A stretch of 62,416 nucleotides of DNA, filler included, from Hausera hauseri (lineage: Eukaryota): the NCBI GenBank assembly GCA_046269625.1. It is 13 parts of 13 records of this genome, joined end to end, with 100 filler letters (N's around TTAATTAATTAA, not from the genome) between each part and the next. Parts side by side here need not be neighbours in the genome. Positions count along the whole stretch, not along the records: positions 29,087 to 34,040 come from JBJURY010380480.1; positions 34,141 to 38,461 come from JBJURY010635775.1; 11 more parts are not named here. One strand, 5' to 3'. Within the stretch, counting starts at the first letter, position 1. The number at the start of each line of letters is the position of its first letter. Below, piece after piece: positions 3,883 to 52,161 of the stretch. A program made the position numbers and the translations under genes. Under the pieces are notes generated by a model. The model saw only the letters and a list, made by a program, of their open reading frames with translations. It searched no databases and was not told the origin of the DNA.

Positions 3883-5112
3883 TCATAACTTGTCTGATAC
3901 TAAATCAAGAGCCGTGTGAATATTGCATGTGTATTTTCCTGAGTCGGTTAACTGAACGTTGAAAATATTCAGATTCCCGTTCTTAGTAATTTTAAGTCTT
4001 GTAAATATTGTCGTTTGGAAAAATGGGGAGTGCTTGAGGAGTTTCCCAGTAGAACTCAGCCTTTGTATTTTTAACATCACATTCAAGAGTAACATTAGCT
4101 CCTTCAATCACAATTTTTTTTCTATTGGTCATTTATTGCACCTTTTACACTCTCTTTAAGTTCTATATAAAACAAAGCCAAAAGTCTGATATCTTTCTGA
4201 TCCAAATAGCATCCGTAGTAACCCTGATTTTTCCTACTGAAAACTTTAATCTTCAGTAGGCTATTGTCTACGAGAAAGACAATATTTGCCATTTTATCAT
4301 TGGATAAGATCGATTTCATAATATTGTCACCATCTTTTGGACACAACAATTCGATGGTCTTTAATCTTAACTTTTAATTTTTGTAAATTTACTTTTAATA
4401 CATTGTTGTTTGAATCCAGAACCAACAACCACGAGTCACTAAATTACAATCGACCATAATCGTTTTCTGCTTCGCATTTATACCTTCCTGTATCGGATAA
4501 TCTCAAATCACTGATTTTTAACGACCATTCTGTTTGATTTTGTTGAACATTAAAACTACTCGAAAAGTAATATCTTTTTATTACGTCTTTCTGAGGTTTG
4601 ATTTTAGCTTTTATCAATTTATTGTTTTTCAACCATCTGACTTGGGGTTCTGGATTGCCGACTGGCGGTTGACATGAGATTGAAGCAGATTGTTTGACAT
4701 CTAGAACTTGAACAGATAACAGCTGGCTTATGAATGATTCTGACAAATATGACAAAGCCGTTTTAGCGGGAGAGCTTACAGTCCAGTCCATGTAATTGGA
4801 CGCGGTACAGTAAAATTCATACGTTTCTCTCGGCACCGGTTTGTTGACTTTCAAAATACCCAAATCGTTTATAACCTGGAGACCTCTGGTCTAATCATCT
4901 GCAACTGGTATATGATTAGCGATATTGTACCATATTATTCAAGGAACCGGATTGCCGATTGCTTCGCACGACAACTGAAGACTTCCAGATTTCGGGAAAA
5001 AATCTTTCGGTTGTTTGATGATCGTTACTGATTTGGGCATTTTGTTTCCAAATTATGATTTAACCATAATGTAGTTCGATAGAATTAGTAACATAACGAA
5101 CAGGGTCCGCAT
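3883..5112 (-). pseudogene. Ig I-set cell-surface receptor pseudogene, Robo-like (signal peptide + about 4 Ig domains)
   Basis: From ATG 5112: MRTLFVMLLILSNYIMVKS*FGNKMPKSVTIIKQPKD..LQLSCEAIGNPVP*IIWY...FYCTASNY...ISCQPPVGNPEPQVRWLKN...DTGRYKCEAENDYG; then GYYGC and NGNLNIFNVQLTDSGKYTC. CQPPxGxPEP resembles Robo Ig2. In-frame stops and frameshifts. Confidence 0.75.
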
Positions 5113-24808: not shown

Positions 24809-27800
24809 ATGGTGAGTTTTTTAATTGTGCTCCTCAAACAATTGATTGATTTTAGATGTGAAAACTTTACAGCGAATGTTTGGCTCAAATCTACGAGCCG
24901 GAAAATTGGCACAGTGTTATGAAGAAGTACTTTGGCCATATGTAAAACAGGGTTCAGTATTATATATGCCCTACATGTGAGGTGGTTGCCAAATTAATTA
25001 TGAAGACTTTTACAATGTCCATAAACAGCACCTGATTTCCTTCATCAAGATGAAAAATCAAATATTCAGTACAAATATGCCAATAACGACTTTTGTGCCA
25101 AAGGAAAATAAAAGATGCAGTTCATGTGTATGGCATATGTGCAATGCACAACCCTCAGAATTGACACAATACCATGAGGAGCTATTATGGATACAAATTC
25201 AATAGGGTCCTCTGTTATATATGCCCTCGATGTGAAGCTGTATGTGATGGAAAATACATGCATTTTTACAAAGATCTTATTGCCCATTTGACAGGCTTCA
25301 ATTTAATGCAAAAGAAAGTCTCATTTAATGAGCAGCATCCTGCTTTAGAAGCACAGCCTGCTTTGGCAGCATATCCAGCTGTACATCCTGCTTCTTCAGC
25401 AAAGCCTGATTCAAGACCAAAACGTTTATTAGAGGTAGCAGCAGATGCTCCATCAAAAGGCCAAAGAGAGCGTCCAGTTGATGCAGCTGAACTGAAGAGA
25501 AAAGTTCGCCGATACTTCATAGCAGCAGTAGGGCAGACATCGCTCCATAAATTCCTGCAATATTCAAAGGAGGAGGCAGCAGGAATTCTCAAGGACAACT
25601 TGTTGGAGCTGATAGTTCTTAAGGTGAACTTCAAATTGGAAGCCACCGTCACCAATGTCGAAGGAGAGCTGCCTAGTAGAACCTTAAGGACAAAGAACAG
25701 GCCACAACTGAAATCCTCTAACATTAAGGATTTCATTAGTGAGGAATATGCAAGGCTTATCCGCGAAGCTGAAGAAAGCCAGGACAAGAGGAGCGGTTGG
25801 ACTTTAGCAACAATAAAGGGGTTATTTGTGCATGTGCACAAGTATTCTTCCATGAGAGGTAGCTCCTACATACCGCTTCCTAAATTGATAGTTAAGAAAA
25901 AGGTATGTGTCAATGTCCATAATAATGACAACATTTGTTTCATGTATGCCATTTTATCAAAACTAGTCCAGGATCAACATAATGCTTCCTGAGTTGGCAT
26001 ATGTGACAGAGTGCAGCATACATACGACTTTAGCTGTATTTCATTCCAGCCGAGCCTAGATAAAGTCGTAAAATTTGAAAGAGTGAACAACATCTCAATC
26101 AACATCTTCGGATTGGAGGAGAACAAATTTTATCTATTATATGTGTGCAAGGAGAACTTAAAGGATCATAGGGATCTACTCCATCTAGAAGATGGGGAAA
26201 CGGGACATTTCATCTGGATTAAGAATTTTGAGCGCCTCGTAGGATCCCAAATATCCAAGCATAAATTAAGGCTGGAAATATGCAAGAGATGCTTTACTTA
26301 TTTTAATGAAGACACAGCCGCAGAAAAACTGGAGGAGCACAAGACCTACTACAATACACACTATTTCATCCGAGCAAAATTCCCCAAGGAGGATTATCTG
26401 GAATACAAGGAGTTCGAGAAGATGCAGGAAGTGTCGATTGTCACATATTGTTACTTTGAGTCCATCCTCAGCCCAGTTTACAGCTGCATCCCCAATCTAC
26501 AGCAAAGCAGTACTACAGCATACGAATACTATGAGTTATCATCATACTGCATGTATGTCAAAGGACTGGACAACGAATTCCATCTCTACAAATGTCTAAA
26601 TGCAGCAGTACATTTTATACAAAGTCTGGAACAAAATGTCCCAAACTTGAAGACATGTTGCAGCAGCATAAGGGCTACATGGTGATGCCGCAGCAAAAAA
26701 ATGTGAATGGGGCAAAGCATCAACATACTACTTATGCAAAAAGCCATTCATATGGGACAATTACAAAATCAGGGATCACTGCCATTTTACAGGCATATGC
26801 CGAGGTGCAGTGTGCAACAATGGCAACTTACCCTGCAAGACATGTACATATGTTCCCGTGGTATTCCACAATCTTAGTGAATACGATTGCCACTTCATTG
26901 TTCGAGAATTGTGTAATATTGAGGGGAACATAGATGTGATTTCAAATAGTGAAAAGTACATCACCTTCACGAAGCATGTGGACCGCATCAGACTTCGCTT
27001 CATTGATAGCTTCCGCTTTTTGAGTTCGTCACTGGACAGCCTCGTAAAGAACCTTCCAACTGATGAGCTCAAGGAGAGGAAGATGTTCTTTCCGGATACA
27101 TTTGACCTGGTGAAGCGGAAAGGAGTGTTCTTCTATGACTATATAACGTCATGGAAAGCACTGGATGAAGATGCATTACCGGCCAAGGAAAACTTCTATA
27201 GATATTTGTCATACAGTCATATTAGCGATGTTGACTACGAGCACGCCCAAAGAGTATTGCAGACCTTCCAGTGCAGGACAATAGAGGAATACAGTGATAT
27301 CTATCTCCTCACAGATGTCCTGTTGCTTACTGATGTTTTCGAAAGCTTCGGGGTTGTGACCCTTAAGATCCACAAGTTAGATCCAGCCCATTTCTTTGCA
27401 GCTCCAGGAATGATTTGGACAGCTTCACTATATGCTGCGCTATACCTCATAAGGCTCCAGATCTTGAAGGATTACAATATGGTTCTCATGATTGAGAGAG
27501 GCATCAGGGGCGGAATCTGCCAGGACATTCACAGGCACAGTGTGGCCAACAACAAATACATGGTAGATTATGATCCATCCAAGGAATCCTCATATGTATC
27601 ATACCTGGATGCCAACAATCTGTATGAATGGGCAATGAGCAACATATTGCATTGTGATAACTTTCAATGGGTGGAGCAGCCGCAAGTCCTGGATATTAAA
27701 TGTATGGATCCAAATGGAGATACGGGCTACATACTGGAGGTGGACGTGAAATACCCACATAGCATCCACACAATGCATTAGCAGCTGCCTTTTCTCCCTG

Positions 27801-28730
27801 AGAGCAAGAGGCCGCCAAATGGAAAGCATAAAAGCTGCTATGTCACTTCGAAAAAAAGGAGAGGTATGTAGCCCACTATATAAACCTCCAACAGGCCATA
27901 CAAAATGGATTCCGAGTCATCGGGATTCATCCAACTCTGCAGTTCAACCAGTCCAAATGGCTGAATCCATACATAGATCTTAATACTGAGTTGAGGGCCA
28001 ATGCCAAAAACGAGTTTGAATAGGATCAGTTCAAACTTTACAAAAACTCGGTCTTTGGCAAAACTATGGAGAACATCCGGAACAAAGAAACTCATCGCTA
28101 AGCCCAACTTTCACAGCAGCACATATGCTCAAGACATCACTTGAGTTCAGCAAGCCTATACATGTGGGCATGTCCATATTGGATCTATCCAAGATCTTGA
28201 TGTATGACTTTCATTACAACGTCATGGTCCCCACATTCAATGAGCTCCAGCTAATGTACATGGACACGGACAGTTTCATATACCTGATCCATACAGATTA
28301 TATCTTTGAAAAGTTTGCAAAATTGGCGCAGTATATGGATACCTCGGACTAGCCCAAGGATCATCCAAATTACTTAGTCGTCAACAAGAAGGTCCACGGG
28401 AAGTATAAAGATGAGGCAAATGGGACGATCATCACCCGTTTCGTTGCGGTGAGATCAAAAATATATGCCATCGATGTAAGTGGTCAAGTAAAGAAGCGGG
28501 CTATGGGAGTTCAAAGGGCTACATTAGCTAAAGACATACGCTTTGTAGATTTTGAGAGAGTGTTGCGAGAACAAACTCACATCGTCAGCGAGGTAAAGAG
28601 GATCCAGTCCCGAGAACATCAGATTGCTACGGTTGCGCTGCGCAAGAAAAGCCTTAATTGATTCAATGACAAAAGGCACATTCTTAAAGACGGAATCCAC
28701 ACACTACTTCGTGGACATGTGTCATTGTAA
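24809..28730 (+). pseudogene. polB: Polinton/Maverick protein-primed family B DNA polymerase, copy A1
   Basis: SGWTL..GSSYIPLP, CVNVHNNDNICFMYAI, EndoVII-like DHCHFTG..RGAVCNNGNL, VVFHNL..YDCHFI, FIDSFRFL, RKGVF.YDY, DVLLL.DVFE, YLDANNLY, KNSVFGKTMEN, YMDTDS, RSKIY. Confidence 0.95.
24812..24855 (+). other. 44-nt spliceosomal intron immediately after the polB ATG
   Basis: ATG|GTGAGT...TTTTAG|; removal puts the ATG in frame with the conserved Cys/His domain; same position and length in copy A2. Confidence 0.8.
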
Positions 28731-28885
28731 ATATTATTATTATTCATTATTATTCTTTTGCCTAATAAATGTTGTAAATAAATATCTTGTTGTATTCTTG
28801 ATCAAGAAATGTGGGATATAGGATAAGGCCAAGTAAAAGTAAGTAACTGCTATATAGGATAAGACCAACTAATTTCATAACACAT

Positions 28886-28986
28886 TTATTTAGTAACAAT
28901 ATAACTTTAACATAACGCTAAACACTTTTTATATGCACAATGTGAACCATGTTCACGATAAATACATGTAATGTTCTTTGGTATAG
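28886..28986 (-). pseudogene. C-terminus of the DxE nuclease-like accessory gene, convergent with polB
   Basis: IPKNITCIYREHGSHCAYKKCLALC*SYIVTK*, homologous to about 33740-33835. Confidence 0.8.
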
Positions 28987-29086: not shown

Positions 29087-30085
29087 AACTCGGTGCAGTG
29101 TATCCGTGCCACTTGACGAGATATTGTTTATTCGAACCTTTGCCACGTGAACGTAGAATTTCCAGAATGCGATGTACATCGGGTTTCTTGGGCAGTACCT
29201 GCAGTTTCTGTTTGAAGAACTTACCGCGTATTTCCTCACCGTTTTCATCCTCTAAAATGTACATGACAAGTGTTTGTTTTGTGTTAACTGCCGAAATGCG
29301 GAAAACCTTGTCTCTCCAGTTCTGATTGAAATTCTTAATGAACGACGTGGTACTTATTTTTGAAATACGTACATAATAACCGATTTTATACTTGAGACGA
29401 CGTTTAGTTGGTCGTCGTCGGTTTTGATAAAGCCACATGTCCAAATCATCGATTATATCAACCGGCCGTAATCCATTGATGCCACGACGTGTCGAATGAT
29501 TGTAAGCATGAATAATATCCGGCAGTGCATCTATCCAGCGTTTGTTGACTTGCTTCGTAAAGAATTTGTTTAGGCGACCGTGCAATGTTCGATTAAATAG
29601 TTCGACTAGTGCAGCCTTGTATTGGGAAAAAACCAAGTAGTGGTTTACGCCAAACCGTTTCAAGACCGCTGCAACGCGGGCGTTGTAGAATTTCTTACCC
29701 AAATCCGTTTGCAAATGCTTCGGCTGTTGTTGTTGTATCAGTGTCTGGACAGCGTCGGCAATATCTTTACCGGATTTAGATTTCACGGCAATTGCATGTG
29801 CAAAGCGACTAAACACATAAACACATGTCAGCACGTACCTATGCCTATCGTTGATGCTGACGTAGGGAATCATTTCCATTAGATCCATTTGCCATACGTT
29901 ATTTACATTGGTAGCACGGTATGCACAAGTTGGAAACAGCCTTTTTATAGGTTTTTTAGGCTGTATGCTAACTGTTTCCCGAGCCAACATTGGGTCTCTT
30001 GACGAGTCTGTTTGACAGTCTTTGCCAGTTTGTCGACGCCAGTATACCCAATAGGATGACGCGGATTAAACCACATGTCGCCCAT
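29087..30085 (-). pseudogene. int: Polinton retroviral-type (rve) integrase with C-terminal chromodomain, copy 1
   Basis: WQMDLMEM..YVLTCV.VFSRFA, LQTDLGK.FYN, KAALVE.FNRTL, YNHS, VRISK, YLVKWHGY. Confidence 0.95.
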
Positions 30086-30238
30086 CGTTGTCGTCGGTGT
30101 TGTCTATGATGTCTTTTTTGTTTGCATTGCAGCAATGAGAACGAAACGTTAATTAAAGATTCCGTAAACTGGGACAAAATGATGAAAACCATGCACCCGT
30201 ATCGCGGAATCATGATATACTTACCGTCATTGTTTATA

Positions 30239-30562
30239 CTAAACTGCTCCAAAAATCAGTCCCCCCAGTAATGACGTGACAACCGGTAGAATTGCACCCA
30301 GGAATCCGCCATTTTGCTGGCACATGACCTCTCGTTTCAGTCGTTTACTACGAGCGTTGGCAAGGCCAGTGAGTTGTTTTCGATACTTTAGTAAATTCTG
30401 CTTTCCACTACCAATATCAGCGTGACCCACAACGATATTGTACAAAATTTCCATCACGTCGTCCACTAAAAATTGCAGGAATGATCGTAGTATGTTTTGC
30501 ATATGTCTCGCAGATGCCTTGAGCAAAGCAATAAAGTACGGCTGACTACGTTTGAATCGCAT
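30239..30562 (-). CDS. Small conserved Polinton/adintovirus protein ending in QxGG-F plus an amphipathic helix (putative virion protein)
   Basis: 107 aa: EILYNIVVG..LLKYRKQL..QQNGGFLGAILPVVTSLLGGLIFG; lies between ATPase and integrase; second copy at 45755-46053. Confidence 0.75.
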   Translation of the reverse strand: MRFKRSQPYFIALLKASARHMQNILRSFLQFLVDDVMEILYNIVVGHADIGSGKQNLLKYRKQLTGLANARSKRLKREVMCQQNGGFLGAILPVVTSLLGGLIFGAV

Positions 30563-30593
30563 TTTAGACGTATTGATGCTGAGACGTTGTTGT

Positions 30594-30755
30594 TTATAAC
30601 CGTTGCCACTGTAACGGTAACTTGCGTCTAGCTGTTGTTCGAAACACATAATTGATTAATCGCTTGACTGCAGCGGTTTGTTTTGATACACATTTCTTGC
30701 CGGACATCCACTTGGTAGGTATACGTTTAACAATAGTTTTCCGGAAATTTTTCAT
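30594..30755 (-). CDS. Small basic protein (or basic C-terminal tail of the ATPase)
   Basis: MKNFRKTIVKRIPTKWMSGKK..KRLINYV..KLPLQWQ is conserved in copy 2 (about 46090-46265); in frame with the ATPase, with CGA here where copy 2 has TGA. Confidence 0.5.
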   Translation of the reverse strand: MKNFRKTIVKRIPTKWMSGKKCVSKQTAAVKRLINYVFRTTARRKLPLQWQRL

Positions 30756-30769
30756 TTTATTACAATCAT

Positions 30770-31426
30770 GTCGTCGACTTTCAAGTTTTTTATAGACATG
30801 CGCACCTTTCTGAAGGAAAATATCTCGTCGTACACGGATGTCATCGGAATATTGTTGTGTAAAGTCAATAAACAGATATCCATGCGCTTTGTTCGTAGAA
30901 TCATGATATGCATCTATCAAGNNNNNNNNNNGGCTGTGAGGAAATGCTTGTCGTGCAGCATAATCAATCATAGTTTGATCACGTGGATTTTTGAACAAAA
31001 CCAAATAATGTACGTTTAGATTTTTTGTTCGATGCTGTCCGCCTTGATGGAACATGTCTTACGTAATGAAAACAACTGTCACACCACGGTGTCCTACAAT
31101 TGTTGTGAACAGGTTGTTGAAGTCCGATTGTTTCGCGGCTTCCTGAAATAAATCGTCAATAACAATAACGTCATGGTTGAATAATCCCTCAGACCAGTTT
31201 TCATCAAATTAATCAATTACCGTTATGGATTTTAATTTACAAAATTCCCGATGTGTCAAACCGGACTCATCATCATCACTAACACCCTGATGCCAGTAAA
31301 TGTGATTGTACCGCGGTTAATGGAACATGTCACGGTATTTCTGCAATAGTTTTCACACAAATGCGTATTGCCACTTCCACTGGGGCCTACAATCTTCAAA
31401 ATTGCATTATTCTGCAGCTTCATCAT
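30770..31426 (-). pseudogene. A32/FtsK-like genome packaging ATPase, copy 1
   Basis: IVGPSGSG(N)TH Walker A, VIVIDDL Walker B, GHRGVTVVFIT, NVHYLVLFKNPRD, HGYLFID. Confidence 0.93.
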
Positions 31427-31510
31427 AATAATACAACCTTTCCTTACATGCTTTGTTTATAATCGTGTTACACACATATATATAGCTATAGTATAAACAC
31501 TGTTTCTATA

Positions 31511-32072
31511 ATGGTAGCTAATATCAACTATCGCGGACACGTTACCGAGTGTGACATTAACACATTACCTTTTAATCAATGGAAGCCTGAGGAAGTATGT
31601 CCTCAAGTGTCCACCGGATTTTACGTGCATTATATTTTAATCGGGAAAGTGTCGTATTATGGGTTGTCGCAAACCAATCACAGCTGACAGTAACATTAAA
31701 CTACTGCCATTCGGAATTGTCATTGACCAAATCCAATCAATAACGGTAACGACTCAGTCAGACTGCCCATCAATCAATCTGTACAAATTAGCAATGGCCA
31801 CTGCTGAATGTATGTATGAACTCAAACTGTTTCCAGCACTGAGACTGACATCGTTTCGCCCACTTTGTGTCAATGTGTTTAGCAGTGGAAAATTTGTTGT
31901 ACTCGGTATTCGGACAGTGGACTATGAACCGATTAATCAAATTAAAAACCACATAAATGTTTTACTGAATCAAAATAATGTACTTTGCACAAAAACAAAC
32001 TATAAATACCATTCCCATGCTCATTCCGACATTACTGTCATGGAAGACGACAAAAACGATTCTACTCAATGA
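31511..32072 (+). pseudogene. tbp: TATA-box-binding-protein-like gene inside the Polinton contig (one frameshift, one stop)
   Basis: Repeat 1: MVANINYRG...CIIF*SGKCRIMG; repeat 2: IQSITVT...INLYKLA...MYELKLFPALRL...PLCVNVFSSGKFVVLG (TBP YEPExFPGL..IFxSGKxVxxG pattern). Confidence 0.85.
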
Positions 32073-32265
32073 TGGTGGTTGTGAGAATGATGAAAGTTCA
32101 GATTGGTCATGGTTGTTTGGCTACAAAAAAGACAATTCTAATATTAAACTGCTGGAAACGAAAACGGAACCTGTCTAACAATTAGAAAAACCTTATAATG
32201 GCAACTGTCTGGAACTTGCTCAGAAATCAGCAGCGGCAGCAGCAAAACCGACGTTAAAAAGGCAA

Positions 32266-32712
32266 ATGGCAATGATTAAAATACGTAAACGAAAATCAAA
32301 ACCGTCGTGCCAAACACAGACATTTTTACCTAAACGAATTTTTCGCAAGTATGAAGTGCATTTCCTGCAAACGCCCGTACTAATTTCATTGAATGACCCC
32401 GTGTCTCTCTGTGCACACAAGTACAGCTATCGTGCAAAATGGCTTTCGGGTGAAAATTTGGATAAACTTTCTGATGCTTTTCATCAATTAGACGTGAACT
32501 TAAAGTTGAACGAAACGACCGCGCAACAGCAATCTGTCGTTTTATTGGCCCAGAAAACGAAATTGTTTGATTTTATCGGTCGTGAAATGTCTCATGTACC
32601 CGATGATGATTTAAAGTGTCGACTGAATATTGAATTGCAAGGACGCAGGGAAAAGGCCGGTATCAAAAGCCCGATTTGGCATGTAGCTGAAGCACATTTT
32701 AATTATCAATAA
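32266..32712 (+). CDS. Hypothetical Polinton accessory protein, 148 aa, basic NLS-like N-terminus
   Basis: Open ATG ORF in the co-oriented cluster; AATAAA overlaps the stop. Confidence 0.5.
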   Translation: MAMIKIRKRKSKPSCQTQTFLPKRIFRKYEVHFLQTPVLISLNDPVSLCAHKYSYRAKWLSGENLDKLSDAFHQLDVNLKLNETTAQQQSVVLLAQKTKLFDFIGREMSHVPDDDLKCRLNIELQGRREKAGIKSPIWHVAEAHFNYQ

Positions 32713-32799
32713 ATTTTGTTTTACCGTTCTTCTTTCATTAACCCAATTAACGAGTATAAATATACATGTAATTTTAATATAGGCATAAGAATATTGATA

Positions 32800-33264
32800 A
32801 TGAATAATGTGAAGATTATTTTAACAGACGAAAATGCCTTTGTATCGAGAAGTGTTACAGCAAACAGTGCAGGCTACAATGTGTTTCACAATGTCAATAC
32901 GACAATTTCGGACAGCACAATCAAATGCATAATGATTGGGATTCGATTGGCGATTCCACCCGGTTACTACGGCCAACCTTTATCGAAAAGCGGACTGGCA
33001 AAGCTCGGACTGACGGTTGTTGGCGGTGTCATTGATTCAGACTTTCGTGGTGAAATTAAGGTGTTGCTGAAAAACAAATCCAAGGAACCGTATGCTCTTT
33101 CGAAAGGCCGCGCAATCGCACAAATCGTGTTTCTTCGATGTGAAGAGGCGGAATTCAGTGTAATGTCACCGGAACAATGGGGATTGTTTTGTGTCAATGA
33201 AGCAACACAAAATGAATGCAAAGAATTTGGCTTTGGTGATATGAACAAAATCATCTATGTTTAA
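32800..33264 (+). CDS. dut: dUTPase (trimeric type), motifs partly decayed
   Basis: SAGYNV, SKSGLA, GGVIDSDFRGEIKV, IAQIVF; motif 5 degenerate (EFGFG). Confidence 0.93.
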   Translation: MNNVKIILTDENAFVSRSVTANSAGYNVFHNVNTTISDSTIKCIMIGIRLAIPPGYYGQPLSKSGLAKLGLTVVGGVIDSDFRGEIKVLLKNKSKEPYALSKGRAIAQIVFLRCEEAEFSVMSPEQWGLFCVNEATQNECKEFGFGDMNKIIYV

Positions 33265-33344
33265 TGATTGTGATAATAATAGTACTAATAGTTAGTTGTT
33301 TTGTTTGCGTTATAAACAAAAAATGATTTTGTATATGATAAGTA

Positions 33345-33839
33345 ATGGCGACAAAATTTATAGATATTGAAGCTTCCCAAGATGATAATGCTAGGTACAT
33401 AATAAAGGAATTATGAATTATGGACGTCGGTAACATTTTCGAATCGCTTGTGTACATATTCAAGCCCGGTATTGTGTGGAAAAACATGGAGGCAAAAGCG
33501 AAAATTACAAATGGATTTCTCTTTCGACATCGTCATTGACTTCATTGGTATGAAGGCAATTCTATTTTCTGTGCGGCGTATATTATTGGAGAGACTTGTG
33601 ATCGTTTTAACATTGAAAATACAATATTTTACATTAAAGATCAAATTGTCGCACAAAAGTTTACACAACTCCATTCACAGTTTCCCGAGTTGCAAATGAC
33701 GACGTATTGAACAACATCGAACAAGTCGTTGGCGATGGTACCTGACAATATTCAATGTCCGTATCGTGATCATGGACCACATTGTGCTTACAAAAATGTC
33801 TATGGCTTTGTATTGACTATATTTCATGCAAATAAATAA
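33345..33839 (+). pseudogene. DxE RNase H-fold nuclease-like protein with a C-terminal C/H/C motif (Maelstrom/DEDDh-like); absent from the ORF track
   Basis: MATKFIDIEAS..YIIKEL*I..YIFKP..W..KITNGFLFRHRH*LHWYEG..FYIK..CPYRDHGPHCAYK with three in-frame TGA; homologs at 43525-43930 and 28886-28986. Confidence 0.6.
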
Positions 33840-35129
33840 ACGTATTTCTCTGTTTCTTTTTTCTTTCCGTAAATAAGATACGCCGTATTGGTCAGTTAAA
33901 TAATTCAAAAACTATAAATACGGGTAGGAAATAATATTAATCATGATGGAAATAGTTAATCAACTGAAGCAATTGCAATATTTTAATGGATTATCAATTT
34001 CAGACTTGGTACAATGGTGGCAAGTACTTTATAATGAACTNNNNNNNNNNNNNNNNNNNNNNNNNNNNNNNNNNNNNNNNNNNNTTAATTAATTAANNNN
34101 NNNNNNNNNNNNNNNNNNNNNNNNNNNNNNNNNNNNNNNNCGACTTTGTACAATTTAGTTGACCAGAGCCTCATTGTGTCGTCGTTATTGGAAACGAAGG
34201 TGTTGTATAAACAGAACATTAGTCCAACGTTTCAAAAGGAAAATTTGAAACTGTGGATCTTATTAGCTAGTCGCTTGTCGCAACGAATAACCAAAAACAC
34301 GTTTTTATACCATTCGACTAACGATAAATTACAGTTGTAACCTTTTGTCGATTTCCTTTCTGTGCCCGTTATGTTTCTGACGGATTTACCGTTGGATCTT
34401 ATTTCGCTTGATGATTTCCATACGCTCTTCGATGTTTGGGGCTCGCTTTATGTCGATACCGTTATTAAGGTCGACTTGCTCTAGAAAATGTTGGGAAAAT
34501 TTGCCAAATTAAATCATCAAATTTAGAATTGGCATTTAATTTCTCCTGTCGAATTATGCAACGGATTGTAAAGTTTCAAAATCGAATTATAAACATTAAT
34601 AAAGACCAGATGAAATCACGGAAATCATGGAACGATCTTTGTCTTGAAGTGTTGTGTTTGCTGTTCGACAATGTCACGCTGAGTCGAATAAAGATCGATT
34701 GTAAGAATTTGGGACAGTTATTTTTCGATTTGTTACCAAATGACTCTGCGCCGATTACCGAAAGTTCGAAATCATCGAAATTAAGTCGCCGAGAATTCCA
34801 GTGCAATTTGTCATCGGACTGTAAAAGGTAAACTTTTTCTGTTGAAGAAACTTTCAGTGTCATCGTTGTTCGAGTGAAAGTCGCGGATTTTATTCATTTC
34901 TGATTTTATAGGATTTGGGACGAGTTTATAAGTGGCCTTTTGTAAAACTAAATCTGGTTTTGTACAACCTTTACCCAATCGGGTTTCTTGAATTAGACAC
35001 TGACAGAGCGGACAATAACGGTTGCTTTTAATGTACTTACAAATGCACGTTTTACAAAGGGTGTGTAAGCATTACGTAAGCATTGTTGCGTCAATCAAGT
35101 AAACACCACATAAGCAGAAATATAAAATA

Positions 35130-42980: not shown

Positions 42981-43241
42981 ATGATGTAATTACTTTGTTC
43001 TTGTTATATCTTTGTTGTATTGTTAATAAGTCTTGCTTCAAAATATCTTGTTGCCTTCTTGATCAAGTAATGTGGGATATAGGATAAGGCCAAGTAAAAC
43101 TAATTAAGTACTATATAGGCCAATTAAAACTATACAAGTAAATATATTAATCAATAAATGAATAAATTTGAAATTCAACTTTAAAAAATCAACGCAGTGC
43201 GTCATTTACTTGCATTAATCTGCCATTATTTCAAAATCAAT

Positions 43242-43459
43242 ATGGCTGAAGCATGTGCAATATGTCGGGAAAAAATGAACGGCAATAATGCAAAATGTCA
43301 TGCCCAATATGCAGAACAAAATGTGAATATCGTCATCCGGGATGCAGAAGATCAATGTCTGTGTCGTGGGTAGGGTGTCTAATAAAGACCCTATATGATC
43401 TCTGGCCTGACACTGAAAGTGAATATGACAATGATGAAACCATTGTAATTTTTGTTTAA
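43242..43459 (+). pseudogene. RING-finger remnant (central part deleted) downstream of polB A2
   Basis: MAEACAICREKM /frameshift/ KMSCPICRTK...DTESEYDNDETIVIFV*; segment absent at the same position in copy A1. Confidence 0.55.
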
Positions 43460-44030: not shown

Positions 44031-44555
44031 ATGAGAGTAAAAGAATAATTCAGTCTTTTGCCAGTTCACTGTAATATCGTTGGTTTTTATAGAAAAGTTC
44101 AATTTTTCACTAATCATACTACGTCTACCGATCTGTAGACCTTTCGAGCGCATATTGACAGATTGAAAACCACATGCCTGAGCGTCGGTTAGTGATTTCA
44201 ATTGAAATTCAATTGGATGTTTGTGATTTAGCACCAATCGATTGTTTAAATGAAAAATATAAACCGGGAAATATTGCCGCTTGTAATTTCGAACGTGAAA
44301 TGTTCCATTAGTGTCTCGGACTAACTGCAAATGACTACATGCAAGAGATTGTCTTAGTAAAGTATAGCATATTCCACTGTTCTCACGTATTGTTATTGGT
44401 CAAAATGTAAATGTGAATTCCGCCAAAGCCACTTCCAAGGCTCCATGGTGTAAATAGAGAGGTTAGTCCAACGCTATGGTAAACCGTTCAGCTGTATTAT
44501 TGTTGTCGTCTTGTTCTTATAATCTGTTACTGTCTAGTACCAAATAAATCCTCAT
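44031..44555 (-). pseudogene. Polinton minor capsid (penton/PX)-like N-terminus
   Basis: MRIYLVLDSN..NTAERFTIALD*PLYLHHGALEVALAEF matches the NTxxxFxxxLxxPLxLxGxWEVALxE pattern; ATG overlaps the integrase stop (TGATG). Confidence 0.75.
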
Positions 44556-45599
44556 CACTTAATCTGAGATGAAAATATCCAACTCGGCGTAATGTATCCG
44601 TGCCACTTGACAAGATATTGTTTATTCGAATCTTTGCTTCGCGAACGTAGAACTTCCTGAATACGATACACATTAGGTTTTTTCCGGTAGTAGTTGCAGT
44701 TTCTATTGGTAAAATTTGCCACGTATTTCGTCACAATTTTCATCTTCTAAAACGTACATAACAGGTTTTTGTTTTGTGTTGATGACTGAAATTTGGTAAA
44801 CCTCATCGCTCCAGTTCTGATTGAAATTCTTAATGAATGGAGTCGTACTCAGCTTTGAAATACGTACATATTCACTGATTTTATACTTGGGGCATTTAAT
44901 TGGTCGTCGTCGTCGTCGTTGTGTTTGGTTTTGGTAAAGCCACATGTCAAAATCATCAATTACATCAACCAGCCGTAATCCATTGATGCCATGATGTATC
45001 AAATAATTGTATGCATGGATAATATCCTATAGTATATTTATCCAGCGTTTATTACCCTGCTTGGTAAAGATTTTGTTCAGTCGACGGCGTAGTGTTTGAT
45101 TAAATCGTTCAACGAATGCAGCCTTGTATTGGGAAAACACCGAGTAGTGGTTTACACCGAACCGTTTCAAGACTGCTGCAACGTGAGCGTTGTAGAATTC
45201 CTTACCCAAATCCGTTTGTACATGTTTTGGCGGTTGTTTTTGTTGTTCAAATAATCTGTGAACAGTGTCGGCAATCTCTTTACCGGATTTAGATTTGACA
45301 GCAATTGCACTTGCAAAACGACTAAACACATCAACACATGTCAGTACATACTGATACCCATCGTTGATGCTGGCGTACGAAACCATTTTTATAAGATCCA
45401 TTTGCCATACATTATTTCCACCGGCAGAACGGTATGTACGAGTTGGACACCGCCTTCTTATCGGTTTGTTTAGGCTATATGCTAACTGTTACCCGAGTCA
45501 ACGTTGGTTCCGGTTCCTAGTTTATTTGACAGTCTTTGCCAGTTTGTCGACGCCAGTATACCCAACGAGATGACGCGGGTCGAACCACACGTCGCCCAT
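44555..45599 (-). pseudogene. int: Polinton rve integrase with chromodomain, copy 2
   Basis: WQMDL, CVDVFSRFA, VQTDLGKEFYN, VERFNQTL, YLVKWHGYITPSWI. Confidence 0.95.
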
Positions 45600-45754
45600 C
45601 GTTGTCGTCGGTGTTGTCGATAATGTTGTTTTCGTTAGTATTTCAGCAATTAGAACGAAACGTAGATGAAAGATTCGGTAAACTGGGACAAAATGATGAA
45701 AACCATGCACCCATATCGCTAAATCATCATATACTTACCGATATTGTTTATACT

Positions 45755-46053
45755 ATGCTGTAGAACCAGTGAGTCCAACCAGTAGTTATGTGACAACCGG
45801 TAGAATTTTACAAGGAATCCGCCATCTTGATGGTAAATGACCTCTCGTTCCAGTCGTTTACTACGAGCGTTGGCAAGGCCAATGAGTAGTTTTCGATACT
45901 TTAGTAAATTCAGCATTCCACTACCAATATCAGCGTGACCCACAACGATATTGTACAAATTTTTCATCAAATTCTCTACTAAAAACTTCGCTTATGTCTC
46001 ATACATACCTTGAGAAAAGCAATAAAGTACGACTGAATAAGTTTAAATCGCAT
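45755..46053 (-). pseudogene. QxGG-F small protein, copy 2 (frameshifted)
   Basis: LYNIVVGHADIGSG..LLKYRKLL..HQDGGFL. Confidence 0.75.
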
Positions 46054-46279
46054 TTTTGGACGTATTAATGCTGAGACGTAGTTGTTTATTACCATTGCCA
46101 CTGTAACGGTAATTTGCTTCTAGTTGCTGCTGCTTCTGCTGCTGTTATTGTTGTTAGAAGCACAAAATTTATTAATCTCTTGATTGTATTCGTTCGTTTT
46201 GATACACCTTTCTTGCCGGACACCCGCTTGGTAGGTTTAACAATTGTTTTTCGGAAATTCTTCATTTTATCACAATCAT

Positions 46280-46835
46280 TTCATTGATTTTCGAATATGT
46301 TTATAGACATGTACACCTTTCTGATTGAAAATATCTGTTCGTATACGCATGTCATCGGGACACTGTTGTGTAAAGTCATTAAACAGATATCTATGTGGTT
46401 TGTTCGTAGCATCAGAATATGCATTTATCAAGTAGGCTGGGTTGTGAGGAAATGCTTGTCGTGCAACATAATCAATGACAGTGTACGTTTAGTTTTCTTT
46501 TTTGATGCTGTCCGCCCTGATGAACATGTTTTACGTAATGAATATAATTGTCACACCACGATTGCACAATCTTCGTGAACAGGTTGTTGAAGTCCGATTG
46601 TTTCGTGGCTTCCTGAAATAAATCGTCAATGACAGTAACATTATCGTTGTGTAATCTCGCAGACCAGTTCTTATCAAACCCATCAATTACCTTTATCGAT
46701 TTAAATTTAAAAATTCCCGATGTGTCAAACCGACCTCACCATTATCTCCAACACCCTGATGCCCGTATATGTGATTGTACCTCGGTAAACGGAACATGTC
46801 ACGGTAGTTCTGCAATAGTTTACACACAAAGTGCG
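46280..46835 (-). pseudogene. A32-like packaging ATPase, copy 2, cut at Walker A
   Basis: Colinear with 30770-31372; VTVIDDLFQEA, HRYLFNDFTQQC. Confidence 0.9.
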
Positions 46836-48020
46836 TGTTGGGACCCGATTGTTAGTTGAGGAATCTGGCAAAAGTCCGATCAGAAATCGAAATTAGGGTA
46901 AAAAGAGGGTATGTGTGTATATAGAGTGTATGCGTGTATGTATAGGAATGGAAACGAATATGTTGGCATTATATATATTGTACATAATATTTGATGTTTA
47001 TTGTGTTAAGATTGTGTGTGAGATCCGGTTGAAAAAAGAGGAGTGTGATTAGAACATGTAAATATGAATGGAATGTGAAATAGAATTATGAATTATGTAA
47101 TCGTGACGCAACACCTGTAGACGTGCATGGAGTCGGGGAGAGGAGAAGCTGTGTATGGGTAATTATATACGTGTGTATCGATAATGTATATTCACATAGG
47201 TGGAGAAAGAAATGATGTAAATGGAAATTTATTGCAAATTGATCAGAATTATATAATAAAAAGAATTTAAAATTTAAAAATATTTTGAATTGGAGAGGAG
47301 ATTTCTGCTATGATTAATCCGCCAAACCAGAGCTGTATATGGTTATTAAAAATCAGTATCTGCAGATTCAATTCCAAACGAGAAGAGAGTGTTGAAAGTC
47401 TATGGAAACGGATAAAGAATCAATTTAGAATTGAGTTTCGTGCGACAATAATGAAGATATTCATTTTAATATCTGAACAATGGATGACTTGAAAATTATC
47501 TCACTCCACTGGTAGAGATTTCGTGATATGCTTCTTCTATGCTAGCAATGTAAACGACGCTGAGAAATGTTGAGGAATTGATGGGTGATTACAAACAGGT
47601 CGATGTATTATTGAAGTCTGGTGATAGATCCAGAGTCTGTAATGTTGAAACAACCTACCTTAGGGATTTAAGTGTGCCGACTGGACGACGAAACACATAT
47701 CACAAGATAAGTGGACAAAATTCATCAAAATTATTGCTCGAACAAAGACTGATCATTGAAAGTAAAGTGAATAACCCGGTTATTCGTTCGACCCAGATGT
47801 GTAATAAACACGAAAGTTCTCAATTTATCTTTCAGAAATGTTTCTATTATCTTCCTGGTGATCTCAGTAAAAATATTTCACTAAACTCAACCGTTTTGAA
47901 ACGCTCACTATGGAATCACCGATGAGTTTCGTTAATCTCGTTGGAAAATTCACTTCTCAGTGACTTTTCTACGATGACGCATAGATATTTGTAAGTTGTC
48001 GATGGTTGTTAGAGCAGACT
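46836..48020. mobile_element. Foreign insertion interrupting ATPase copy 2, possibly LTR-derived
   Basis: Homology to copy 1 stops abruptly at TGTTGGGACCCG; a candidate TG...CA unit spans 46836-47113. Confidence 0.35.
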
Positions 48021-48120: not shown

Positions 48121-51100
48121 AACTCTTATTTCGCTCCAGCCACTTAAGCTTCTCATTACTGCATGATAAAGCGACTTTTGTATTGGTCACCATATATAGC
48201 TGGTGCTCAATCGATCGGATGATCGTTTGTGACACAACAGCCTTTTATTGTCCTTATTCTTCTTCATAGATACGGCGATAAGCACAGTAGTTTATTTCCG
48301 TCTGGGTCAATTGAACTCCTTTGGCGCGCATTTTCGGTTTAATATCAGTTAAAAGGCTATAACATTTTGGCCATAGAAATATCCATTTTCGATACTGAAC
48401 CCGACCTTCACTTTCATCCTTGAAGCAGCCTATTTTGTTGGTGATCGCGCTGCTGTACAACGGATTATCCGGTGGACAGTTGCACGTGACCAGTAATCCA
48501 TCTGACTGCATTTTCTGCAGTAGCAGTTGGCGATTGACTTTTTTCAGCCTCAGGAAAAAACTGTCTGTGTCACCGGCAATTATACTAATGTCACAGCCGT
48601 GAAACATTTGCCGGTAACGTACCAAATCACGATACTGTAGCTCATACATCCGCAACTTACTCAGGTCCAATACCACTTGTCCGATGTAAATTGACCGGTC
48701 CAGAACGACTCTTCTCTGTTTAAAGGCATGGAAACCAATCCATCGGCAATGTGCATTGACCGCCGAAACTGCGCCTTACTCGTGTATGTAACCAATTGCT
48801 TTATGCTATTGCATAGGCGTACATTGAGCAGCTTTTCAGATTCTCCACTGCTTTTCCATACAGGGAATTGTTTTCCAGCTTGTAGTAATCCTTTTCGAAC
48901 TTTGTGCAAGCTGCGGCTTGTTTTGCCGAATTTTCATCTATGTACGCCTTGAATATGGAAGCCTGAGCAAATCGGATTGCACGATGCAGCTGTGTGACGC
49001 GTACACCGAGCTGCATGTAGAACTGTAGCAGACGCCAATGGATCACGTAATTCAGCTTCGGTTCATGCGTCATAAGGAGTTTCTTCACCTTTGAGCCGCC
49101 GAGCGGACATTGGCTGATTGTTGCGAAAGGCAATTGGTCCAAAGCGTCATGTAACTTATCCGGTACCATGAGATCAACTTCCATCAGTTAGCCGAGTGAG
49201 CTGTTTTCTGCAGTGTCTGCTTTCGGTAAATTTTCCAATATTGCCTTCAGATCTTGCTTGTCCGTTAACCATTCAAATGAACAGTACGGCAAGGATTGCG
49301 AAAGCGCCCAGACGTATAGGTTATTAATGTCCATGTACAACAGTGATGTGGTGTTATCATCACTGGTTATGTAGTGCTTGTTGACAAATATCATGCCGCC
49401 ACGAATACCAACATCAAACAGTCGGCACATTTCTGGGTCCTGCGACAGTTCAATGTCCCGGTTCGGTGATATCATAGCCGATGCCCAACTCATTCCCGGT
49501 ATGGAGTAAAAGTTGAGAAGCTCCAGCCTATCTTCCGCCAACGCCTTAGTCCGAAATGTCTGAAACACATTGGCCAGCAAGTACGCGTCCAGTTTCAGAT
49601 ACTGGAGCATGTAATCCAATAGGCTTCTGCAGCCGAGCTCTGACCAAGATTCCTGTGCTCTGTTATATTCATCTTCTGTTATACTGGACCACCGCGGTGG
49701 CAATTCCGCTGTTGTCTGAAGCCGCTCGTACGATACAGTAAAGTCATACGGGAATATGCCTTTGCTACGTGCAATATGCATCGGAAACTGCGTTGATGTT
49801 AACAGCATATCTGGCAAGGCACTCACCAGCTTTGCTAGAGACTCATTGAGGAACTGTAATAAGTCAAGGAATCGCACATAGAACCGGTTTATGCGTGCCG
49901 ACAGAGACAGGTATTTCTCCGTCGTTGTTGGAATTATGGACAGTTCCCAGTGTGGAAATCCATTAATGCCCATTTCAGAATATGGTGACAATCATAACCC
50001 CCGTAGTTATGAAATATCACGAGCAAGAATGGCCGCACATGCAGTGCTAAATTGCATAATTTGCATGCTGCTCCCGGGTATCGTCCGGTAAAGTGGTCGA
50101 GATCAGGTACGAGCAGTTCCTTTTTATCGAATGCTAATATTTTGTGGCACAGATAGCATTTATCTGTGACTGCAAACGTAAGGCCTTCGTCTTTGTCTGT
50201 CCAGATCAAAGAACTAATGCTGTTGTTACTGTATCACGGTGCAATTTCCGCTTCTACTATTGCCTCCAACTGGTGCAGGAAATCACGTACACAGTTCCAT
50301 CCGTGCAAAACGTAATACTGCGGTTGTCCTGTGGTTTTTATTGGTACTAGCAACATACAGACGGCGATTGGAATGTGATTTTGGTCGCAAACGCTGTGCT
50401 GCGGTAGAATTACTTCAATATAGGCATAAGCCACATATGCCGGACTGTCCGTTTTTGACCAGTCACTGAATCTCAGCTACTTTTTGAGGGACATGACGTA
50501 CATTGTTGTTCCCGATACGTTTCGTCTGCATAGTGCCACGCGTTTTTCCCATGTCGCTTCTAATCTGAAGCCATGCAAACATATAGGGCACCATTTGCAG
50601 CGTATTTGTTTTTGGATGAACTGGTCATGGTCCATGTTAAGCAGTCTGTACAAATTTGTTACGGCCACGTAACGAAATTATTCTGCCTGCTCCAACTGCA
50701 ACAGATATATTTGCGTCCATTCGGGTTCGGACTTCGATAGATTATGTCAGTGTGAAGATTCTTGTAAATTTTCTCTTCTGCCGGTATCATTATTACTGAG
50801 TTGAGCCGGAAAACGTTCATTGACAGTGTCGGATTACGCCGTTCATAAACCGGAATGGTTTTGAGTTTCAACGGCATCCAGCTTTCATCAAAGTTCAATT
50901 GACAAAATACTGACGATATTGTTTTGAACGATTTGCACGATTTCTGGGCACTTCGTCATATTTAAACATGGCTAAAATACTTCAAAGAAAACAGTATTCG
51001 TCGCTATTATTTTCTACATTGACTACAATTTTAGAGTGCTTTAGCGTTGCAGGTGTCGGTATAAATGATCTTCCCGACAAGTAAATCATGCCACTCGACT

Positions 51101-52082
51101 ATGTAATGACAAAGCCGAGAGTGACAATGTTTACAATTCGCCATCCACTACCTTTTCCGTGTATTTGGAGATTTTCTCCTCGAACTTCTCGCCAATCTCA
51201 GCGATAAAATCCTCGGTATATGGTATAGCCCTATGTGGCAGGTACTATTGCAGTTGTAATGGTGTTGGAATTTGCCAACTCCAAATTCCAACAGGTTTCG
51301 CACAATGGATGGAACATGTCTCAATTGCGTTGTTGTTGTTGTTGTTGACGCTGACATGTTCACTTTTATATCCACGTACGATTTTTTCAGATCGTATATG
51401 ACAGTAATGCGTGGTGCCTCTCCGTCTTGCTCCTGTTCCTGCTGCTGCTACTCCTTCGGCTGTTCTTGATTTCTGTTGTTTTGCAAGTATTAGTCAAGAC
51501 TTGTTGATGCCTGACGTTTCCTACTTGTTGAGGGAATACTGCTGCTGCAGTTGCTTTTTGCTGCGTCCAATAATATTTGACTTTTTGACAGCTAAAACTG
51601 GTTTAAGTGGTCATGGTGCTGATTATATAATTGTTCACAGTTGACTTGATCATCAGCTATAGAACAACCGGGACATACTTAGGCCCGTTTACTGTACACC
51701 GTTGTGGTGCCATAGTATTGGTCCATTGCACTATGACAACAACCAACTTCAAGCACTTTATTAGTACAGTAACTTGGGTATGTGGGGCAATGCACAAAAA
51801 TCATCTTCTTGGATCGCGTGAACGGACCGACGTGATGCTTGTACATCTCATAAAAGTGGGCATACAGACATGTGTTTTGAATAAAACACATGGGACAGAG
51901 ATACGCGTCCTTGGCCACTGAATAATATTTGGCCATTTCTTTGTGGCATTGTCCACCCTCATGTATGCGGGCGACGCAATACATGGAGTATTGCGAACAT
52001 TTCTGAATGATAAACAAATTAAACTAAAAATAAATAAAAATGTATCAATTATAAATAAATGAATTTAATTACAATACACCAT
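48121..52082 (-). pseudogene. polB: Polinton pPolB, lineage B, copy B1 (C-terminus cut by the contig end)
   Basis: DHFTGRYPGAACKLCNL, IFHNYGGYDCHHI, SKGIFPYDF, YLKLDAYLL, YMDINNLY, NNSLYGKAVEN, AGDTDS, PKCYS, RAKGV. Confidence 0.95.
52003..52079 (-). other. 77-nt intron after the polB B1 ATG
   Basis: ATG|GTGTAT...T-rich...TTCAG|AAA TGT gives MKCSQYSMYCVARIHE. Confidence 0.7.
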
Positions 52083-52161
52083 AACTTATTCCCCTTACTG
52101 TAGTCTCAGACGTCGCCAAAATAGGCTATAAACTTTTATCAACATTACTACACTAAGTCAA

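Follow-up and report, generated by a model that had tools for sequence, protein, structure and literature searches.

The stretch of DNA analysed here (62,416 nucleotides (nt), hereafter the window) comes from the Hausera hauseri assembly GCA_046269625.1 and consists of 13 unlinked contigs of 4.0-5.7 kb each, joined by spacers, so that the adjacency of contigs within it is uninformative. Contig 7 (29087-34040) holds the element under study, a decayed copy of a multi-copy Polinton/adintovirus-type element encoding its own compact TATA-binding protein (TBP), which we propose to be a switch for late genes. The minus arm of contig 7 carries an integrase with a chromodomain, a pX-like 'QxGG' open reading frame (ORF), a basic ORF and an ATPase; the plus arm carries the TBP, a conserved ORF, a dUTPase and a nuclease-fold gene that resembles Maelstrom (MAEL). 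Pfam supports the rve (4e-13), Chromo (0.0026), TBP (1e-9) and dUTPase (6e-22) domains. The features of contig 7 and of its sister copy on contig 10 are listed below; L-numbers denote related metagenome loci.

29087-30085, minus strand: retrovirus-like integrase with a C-terminal chromodomain (Pfam), frameshifted near 29955 and cut by the contig end.
30232-30238, minus strand: TATAAAC box before a small decayed ORF preceding the integrase, kept in contig 10 at 45746-45752.
30239-30562, minus strand: pX-like 'QxGG' ORF, 43-48% identical to its positional counterparts in L011, L013 and L039.
30592-30598, minus strand: TATAAAC box, its ATAAAC 35 nt upstream of the pX-like start.
30594-30755, minus strand: small basic ORF, likely a core protein judging from its sequence; Lys/Arg-rich ORFs occupy the same slot in L023 and L039.
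30786-31426, minus strand: broken A32/FtsK-like packaging ATPase with a 10-N gap, 54-57% identical to the ATPases of L013, L023 and L039.
31455-31461, minus strand: TATAAAC box, its ATAAAC 34 nt upstream of the ATPase start.
31478-31498, plus strand: divergent promoter zone before the TBP, TATATATAG, then TATAAAC just 18-19 nt upstream of the start.
31511-32072, plus strand: broken compact two-lobe TBP homologue (Pfam TBP 1e-9), 75% identical to P0001.
32179-32712, plus strand: conserved ORF, adjoining the TBP in 21/80 related loci.
32800-33264, plus strand: dUTPase (Pfam 6e-22), an open frame with a canonical TATAAAT upstream.
33311-33317, plus strand: TATAAAC box, its ATAAAC 33 nt upstream of the MAEL start.
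33345-33815, plus strand: MAEL nuclease-fold gene with an E-C-H-C zinc motif (family HMM 2e-32).
33943-34040, plus strand: start of a further ORF with a canonical TATAAAT upstream; no polB end follows MAEL here.
44031-46840, minus strand: contig 10, sister copy from the ATPase to the penton start (44166-44555), with 80% DNA identity to contig 7.

The packaging ATPase and the retrovirus-like integrase, hallmarks of Polintons, are both present in contig 7, and its element fits the Polinton/adintovirus group on testable features; the contig, which ends inside the integrase, has neither polB nor capsid nor terminal repeats. The original prediction, made from the window alone, had described an adintovirus-like virus that integrates and encodes a TBP-like factor, a dUTPase and a nuclease of its own, with the order TBP, ORF, dUTPase, nuclease-like gene following a divergent ATPase; it was right on both counts. 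For the other arm it gave the order penton, integrase, QxGG, basic ORF, ATPase; contig 7 has this order except for the penton, whose start is seen in the window in contig 10 only (E 2e-6). The predicted absence of major capsid and protease genes from the window holds, and there are no terminal repeats in it either; contigs 7, 9, 10 and 11 contain no long inverted repeat, contig 7 being an internal piece. Contigs 7 and 10 are alike over 2334 nt, as copies of sister subfamilies, and their similarity ends at the 5' end of the ATPase, contig 10 having no TBP arm. Judged by resemblance and position, the pX-like ORF is a candidate GasderminX-type gene.

The viral TBP belongs to a family of 368 clusters (E<=1e-25 against the profile), in which intact relatives have 145-160 amino acids (aa). 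Structure prediction gives it the two-lobe saddle fold of TBP (PF00352): the model of P0001 reaches a pLDDT of 94.5, its Foldseek ranks 1-44 are all TBP structures, and it matches cellular TBPs with TM scores of 0.58-0.70 at 19-28% identity. Both lobes of archaeal TBP match the viral profile, the first lobe being shortened in the viral form. A median dN/dS of 0.17, over 84 overlapping and non-independent pairs picked at 60-95% identity, indicates purifying selection on the family. Residues F40, F101, F117, E97 and E99 are invariant in 60/60 sequences; E97 and E99 make up the E-x-E stirrup, whose glutamates are TFIIB contacts in cellular TBP according to the accessible text of PMC7221094, and no conserved Phe is found at the first-lobe stirrup across these 60 sequences. 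R105, C113 and N115 are also invariant in all 60, at positions occupied in cellular TBPs by the hydrophobic residues I, I/V and L. Mapping by motif leads us to infer that they correspond to the I194/V203/L205 patch of yeast TBP, in which substitutions are reported to alter specificity (PMC1636458). The DNA-reading residues of the viral TBP therefore seem altered and its TFIIB stirrup intact; no TFIIB was seen among the ORFs scanned.

Relatives were collected by a search with the TBP alignment, which returned 171 metagenome stretches, the best 80 of which were kept. A Polinton core gene accompanies the TBP in 40/80 of these loci, among them 18 of the 21 loci that measure at least 4 kb. Capsid (12/80), protease (12/80), penton (13/80), MAEL (30/80) and polB (8/80) occur on the same contigs as the TBP, and dUTPase in 0/80. 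In five of the 80 loci a single contig unites TBP, ATPase, integrase, capsid and polB, so the general architecture needs no joining of contigs. The protease of the relatives is supported by Pfam C5 (1e-7); capsid and penton, for which Pfam has no match, were named from their size, their position and what they resemble. The contig 7 ATPase is closest to those listed above for L013, L023 and L039 (integrase 46-55% identical to theirs, and 51-55% to those of L023 and L039), the L023 ATPase matching Pox_A32 (5e-6); to the L061 group, ATPase and integrase are 32-38% identical. The head-to-head ATPase-TBP layout recurs in 2/80 loci (L025 and L032). Scans of viral contigs with the TBP gave one locus, of large-virus type; querying with the polB A segment, the ATPase or the capsid found 0 loci, and integrase and polB queries provided 4 and 16 control loci. 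The prokaryote collection yielded two Polinton fragments, L082 and L083, located in bacterial metagenome-assembled genomes and likely contamination; L083 has both TBP and box.

The box in question is ATAAAC. It was counted over de-replicated loci in the interval 15-75 nt upstream of each start, with ORFs of less than 70 nt upstream or of unclear start dropped and expected counts taken from 2-nt tile shuffles (0.2-1.5 for the box-bearing gene classes). It precedes 23/25 ATPases (expected 1.4), 17/17 pX-like genes (1.2), 9/10 capsids (0.8), 10/11 PLA2-like genes (0.7), 20/26 MAEL genes (1.5), 4/5 proteases and 6/11 pentons, mostly at 33-41 nt from the start. Before the TBP itself ATAAAC is found in 2/55 cases (expected 2.5) and a canonical TATA in 31/55 (expected 10.2). 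In the TBP-bearing comparison set of 13 loci (12 longer ones chosen by hand, plus L083) the box stands before 54/118 ORFs (expected 5.7); in 21 loci in which no TBP was detected it stands before 7/210 (expected 11.9), which is chance level. Contig 7 has five TATAAAC (expected 1.5; 5/300 shuffles reach five), three of them placed so that the box lies 33-35 nt before the ATPase, pX-like and MAEL starts, and its TBP, dUTPase and last ORF have ordinary TATA boxes. A reading of the box as the poly(A) signal AATAAA was rejected, because the preceding base is T or C in 78/82 cases and A in only 3/82.

We propose that the viral TBP acts as an early-to-late switch reading the ATAAAC box before the particle-building genes, with a polymerase that is likely polB B; given the sequence evidence we hold this to be fairly probable. 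Host TBP would first transcribe the genes behind ordinary TATA boxes, such as those for the viral TBP and the dUTPase. The viral TBP would then bind (T/C)ATAAAC(A/G) through its changed DNA-reading residues and, via the intact E-x-E stirrup, would recruit host TFIIB and RNA polymerase II to the ATPase, core, capsid, protease and MAEL genes. The proposal builds on observed genes, folds, decay, linkage of the TBP in relatives and the position and gene-class bias of the box; its mechanism, namely binding and timing, is predicted by analogy with herpesvirus TBP mimics. That a broad animal Polinton lineage possesses such a switch, in which one minimal TBP of changed specificity would turn on the late genes by reading (T/C)ATAAAC and engaging host TFIIB and polymerase II, has in our view a little more in its favour than against it. 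If the switch exists, the viral TBP should prefer the C-containing box among TATAAACA, TATAAAAG and TATAAATA.

Several observations weigh against the proposal. The TBP-linked polymerases form one clade in the polB tree, so that TBP and box versus neither is a single evolutionary contrast, and the TBP-less loci used as controls are incomplete, overlap in part and are for the most part only distantly related. L097 and L100, both TBP-less, have the box before the ATPase; it precedes 1/6 cupiennin-like genes and 5/12 integrases; and contig 7 has a TATAAAC 18 nt before the TBP itself. A doubtful, though not negligible, alternative is that host factors, or a viral protein other than the TBP (perhaps the adjacent conserved ORF), read the box as a late promoter, the TBP itself having a different role, be it as a decoy for host TFIIB or at all viral promoters. 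In its favour, TATAAAC differs from the canonical TATAAA(A/T) at one position, the box stands before the ATPase in the two TBP-less loci, and the co-occurrence of TBP and box need not be causal because the two share ancestry. The chance-level count in the 210 ORFs of TBP-less loci argues the other way, as does L100, which has the same virion module and the box before just 1/11 ORFs. The invariant changes moreover lie on the DNA-reading face of the TBP, and the conserved ORF occurs in 21/80 loci only and was undetected in a distant TBP group that keeps the box.

Two polymerase types, A and B, occur in the window; the polymerases match PF03175 weakly or not at all.

48122-52057, minus strand: contig 11, decayed polB B, in a clade with L013/L023 (100/99); second copy on contig 13, 58405-62335.
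25165-28986, plus strand: contig 6, a decayed polB A towards which a MAEL tail converges; second copy on contig 9, 39399-43870.

Contigs 6 and 9 (type A) are 67% alike and contigs 11 and 13 (type B) 74%. In a polB tree of 24 rows with uninterrupted frames, polB B forms a clade with the TBP-bearing L013 and L023 (100/99), and polB A falls among TBP-less elements; polB A is 30-37% identical to TBP-linked polymerases and 40-45% to several TBP-less ones. The polymerase of contig 7's family is thus likely of the polB B lineage (contigs 11 and 13) and not polB A; contigs 6 and 9 likely represent a separate Polinton family. The physical partner of contig 7 is likely B-type by relatedness. The layout of L085 suggests a tentative Alpha-type class for the polymerase, and an Alpha-type polymerase with a GasderminX/Cupiennin virion module has been described for adintoviruses (PMC8502044).

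The original prediction had instead joined contig 7 to the polB A contigs through the shared nuclease-like gene, making them one element. Its observation that polB converges on this gene in contigs 6 and 9 was confirmed, and the same convergence in the TBP-bearing L023 speaks for the join, as do the presence of MAEL on both sides, the swapping of polymerases among Polintons (reported in the accessible part of PMC8502044) and the MAEL tree, in which the copies of contigs 7 and 9 are the nearest rows by path, in a grouping without support. Placement of polB A as sister of the whole TBP-linked group is not rejected (p-AU 0.52). Nor does depth, several-fold lower for contig 11, favour that contig as the precise counterpart of contig 7: in run X1 the summed contig depth is about 1,800-125,000 over the contig 11 polB and 105,000-456,000 over contig 7, figures that do not equate to copy number, and contig 11 is the more diverged, with 8,409/22,414 records less than 90% alike (9,128/42,378 for contig 7). 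The join itself nevertheless fails. The MAEL copies of contigs 7 and 9 are identical at 29/90 positions (32%), with a tree path of 1.71 changes per site and a DNA alignment score of 50 against a shuffle maximum of 47, a weak signal; blastn gives no match between contig 7 and contigs 6/9 at E 1e-5; a different ORF starts after MAEL in contig 7; and polB A, nearer to the TBP-less polymerases, is rejected from a clade with L013 and L023 (p-AU 3e-6). A single element is accordingly improbable. MAEL is unsafe for joining contigs because it is a known, widespread adintovirus accessory gene, also present in TBP-less elements, and shared accessory genes of this kind cannot serve to join Polinton contigs in general. 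In contig 9, decayed RING-like remains lie between polB A and MAEL (43240-43400, plus strand), and contig 6 is without them. In contig 11, an AT-rich intron-like stretch (52000-52100, minus strand) terminates at an acceptor-like site immediately upstream of the zinc finger with which polB B begins.

Contig 7 is a dead copy. Aligned against intact relatives, its TBP has one frameshift (near 31590) and one stop, the ATPase one frameshift and 4 stops, the integrase one frameshift and MAEL 3 stops in the aligned part, the dUTPase and pX-like ORF being the sole genes that read through over the aligned portion. Splicing in contig 7 was considered and rejected, since the breaks behave as frameshifts and stops relative to intact relatives. 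The integrases of contigs 10 and 7 differ with a dN of 0.14 and a dS of 0.47. When contig 7 is divided into 30 bins, numerous variant contigs map to every one of them in 3/3 runs, the richest run giving 42,378 records. No RNA source was listed as containing 30932-34040, a result without bearing on expression. That contig 7 is a chimera, or a Polinton with a captured and functionless host TBP retrocopy, is the least credible reading and already largely refuted: it can point to a short-read contig with a gap, a broken TBP and a sister contig without the TBP arm, against which stand the even cover across the ATPase-TBP junction in 3/3 runs with a contig piece spanning it (31371-31624), the recurrence of the head-to-head layout in L025 and L032, the purifying selection on the family and the mere 19-28% identity of its model to cellular TBP structures.

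The nuclease-fold gene is Maelstrom-like by its modelled DEDD fold and ECHC zinc motif. The family model (pLDDT 92.3) has Bombyx Maelstrom as its top Foldseek matches (E 7e-5), followed by DEDD nucleases, and E21, C130, H135 and C139 are invariant in an alignment of 27 intact relatives; ECHC is described as the zinc motif of the MAEL domain, which has a DEDD-type fold (PMC4408791, in part). Pfam Maelstrom matches none of 5/5 intact relatives, and a comparison by sequence alone gave no relative of solved structure. Because the acids of the later DEDD motifs vary in the viral form, it is a putative nuclease at most. MAEL is also found in L085, where no TBP was detected. Tandem diverged MAEL pairs follow the TBP directly in L069, L072, L074, L076, L078 and L080, one paralogue having E in place of the first D. 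The dUTPase of contig 7 has two close homologues (66-73%) and, given its absence from the 80 related loci, appears to be a lineage-specific accessory gene gained locally. The conserved ORF beside the TBP has no assignment in Pfam, PHROG, PDB or Atlas, and a role in ssDNA binding found no support in Pfam, PHROGs, PDB, Atlas or profile comparison.

Optional RING and spliced genes had also been predicted; RING genes and short GT-AG intron-like stretches do occur in some relatives, and no intron was seen in contig 7. The AT-rich GT-AG stretches, of about 45 nt, lie before 16/25 ORF starts of two accessory families (in L003, L006-L008, L010, L012, L013, L015, L017, L018 and L026); vertebrate Mavericks are reported, in the part of PMC8097293 available, to be without introns. 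L023 has two penton-like genes in tandem (L023:5616-7684) and encodes a ubiquitin-conjugating enzyme (Pfam UQ_con 2e-12); other cargo of TBP-bearing elements includes a dual-specificity phosphatase (L007:4008-4316) and a KilA-N protein (L061:7136-7993). The other contigs of the window are retroelements and host-like DNA: contigs 2, 4, 8 and 12 hold decayed gypsy-type retroelements (RT, integrase), which together with an Ig I-set coding stretch at 4444-4791 point to an animal host.

The original prediction regarded the gene combination as undescribed. This does not apply to MAEL and dUTPase, both labelled on Alpha-PolB adintovirus maps (Fig. S2 of Starrett et al. 2021, PMC8502044, as far as its text could be extracted) and therefore not new for adintoviruses; what seems undescribed is the viral TBP with its candidate promoter box. 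No TBP or late box was found for animal Polintons in the literature searched, though unseen figures, supplements and subscription papers may contain one. In the accessible text of Starrett et al. TBP is named only in the legend of Fig. 5, in a non-animal section, and does not appear in the extracted text of Fig. S2; that text likewise contains no late promoter box. For the timing of Polinton gene expression and the autonomous making of particles, a TBP and a matching box offer a testable trigger. The ATAAAC box would also mark late genes by sequence, and a minimal TBP whose specificity has been changed in nature would be of use in work on DNA recognition by TBP. If the switch is true, integrating viruses of 12-20 kb would have a temporal programme so far known from herpesviruses and giant viruses, and there would be a predicted way of seeing when silent Polintons make particles. 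The contig 7 copy adds a dUTPase-bearing head-to-head variant, the value lying in the family.

Compared with known systems, the element shares with adintoviruses, Polintons and Mavericks an rve integrase that has a chromodomain, an FtsK/A32 ATPase, a pX-like core protein and a putative penton, and its relatives also have a putative capsid, adenain and polB (PMC8502044). One group of insect polintons is marked by the same accessory gene, mael, along with the core genes; the main text of the insect polinton paper has 0 occurrences of TBP, TATA and dUTPase, and contig 7 differs from those elements in joining MAEL to a pX-like/cupiennin-type module. The viral MAEL shares the DEDD-type fold and ECHC motif with the MAEL domain of Maelstrom (PMC4408791, in part), whereas it is a stand-alone protein of 150-160 aa, the majority of copies keeping D/E-x-E as their first motif. 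Large dsDNA viruses have TBP-like proteins (PMC7221094, in whose available text 'polinton' is absent) of the same two-lobe form and with conserved DNA-binding phenylalanines; these are reported to have diverged at the TFIIB-binding signature and are often accompanied by a viral TFIIB, whereas the Polinton E-x-E is invariant. The proposed mechanism is modelled on ORF24, the TBP mimic of the herpesvirus KSHV (PMC12529657): this virus has no RNA polymerase, and its TBP-like protein guides the polymerase II of the host to late promoters.

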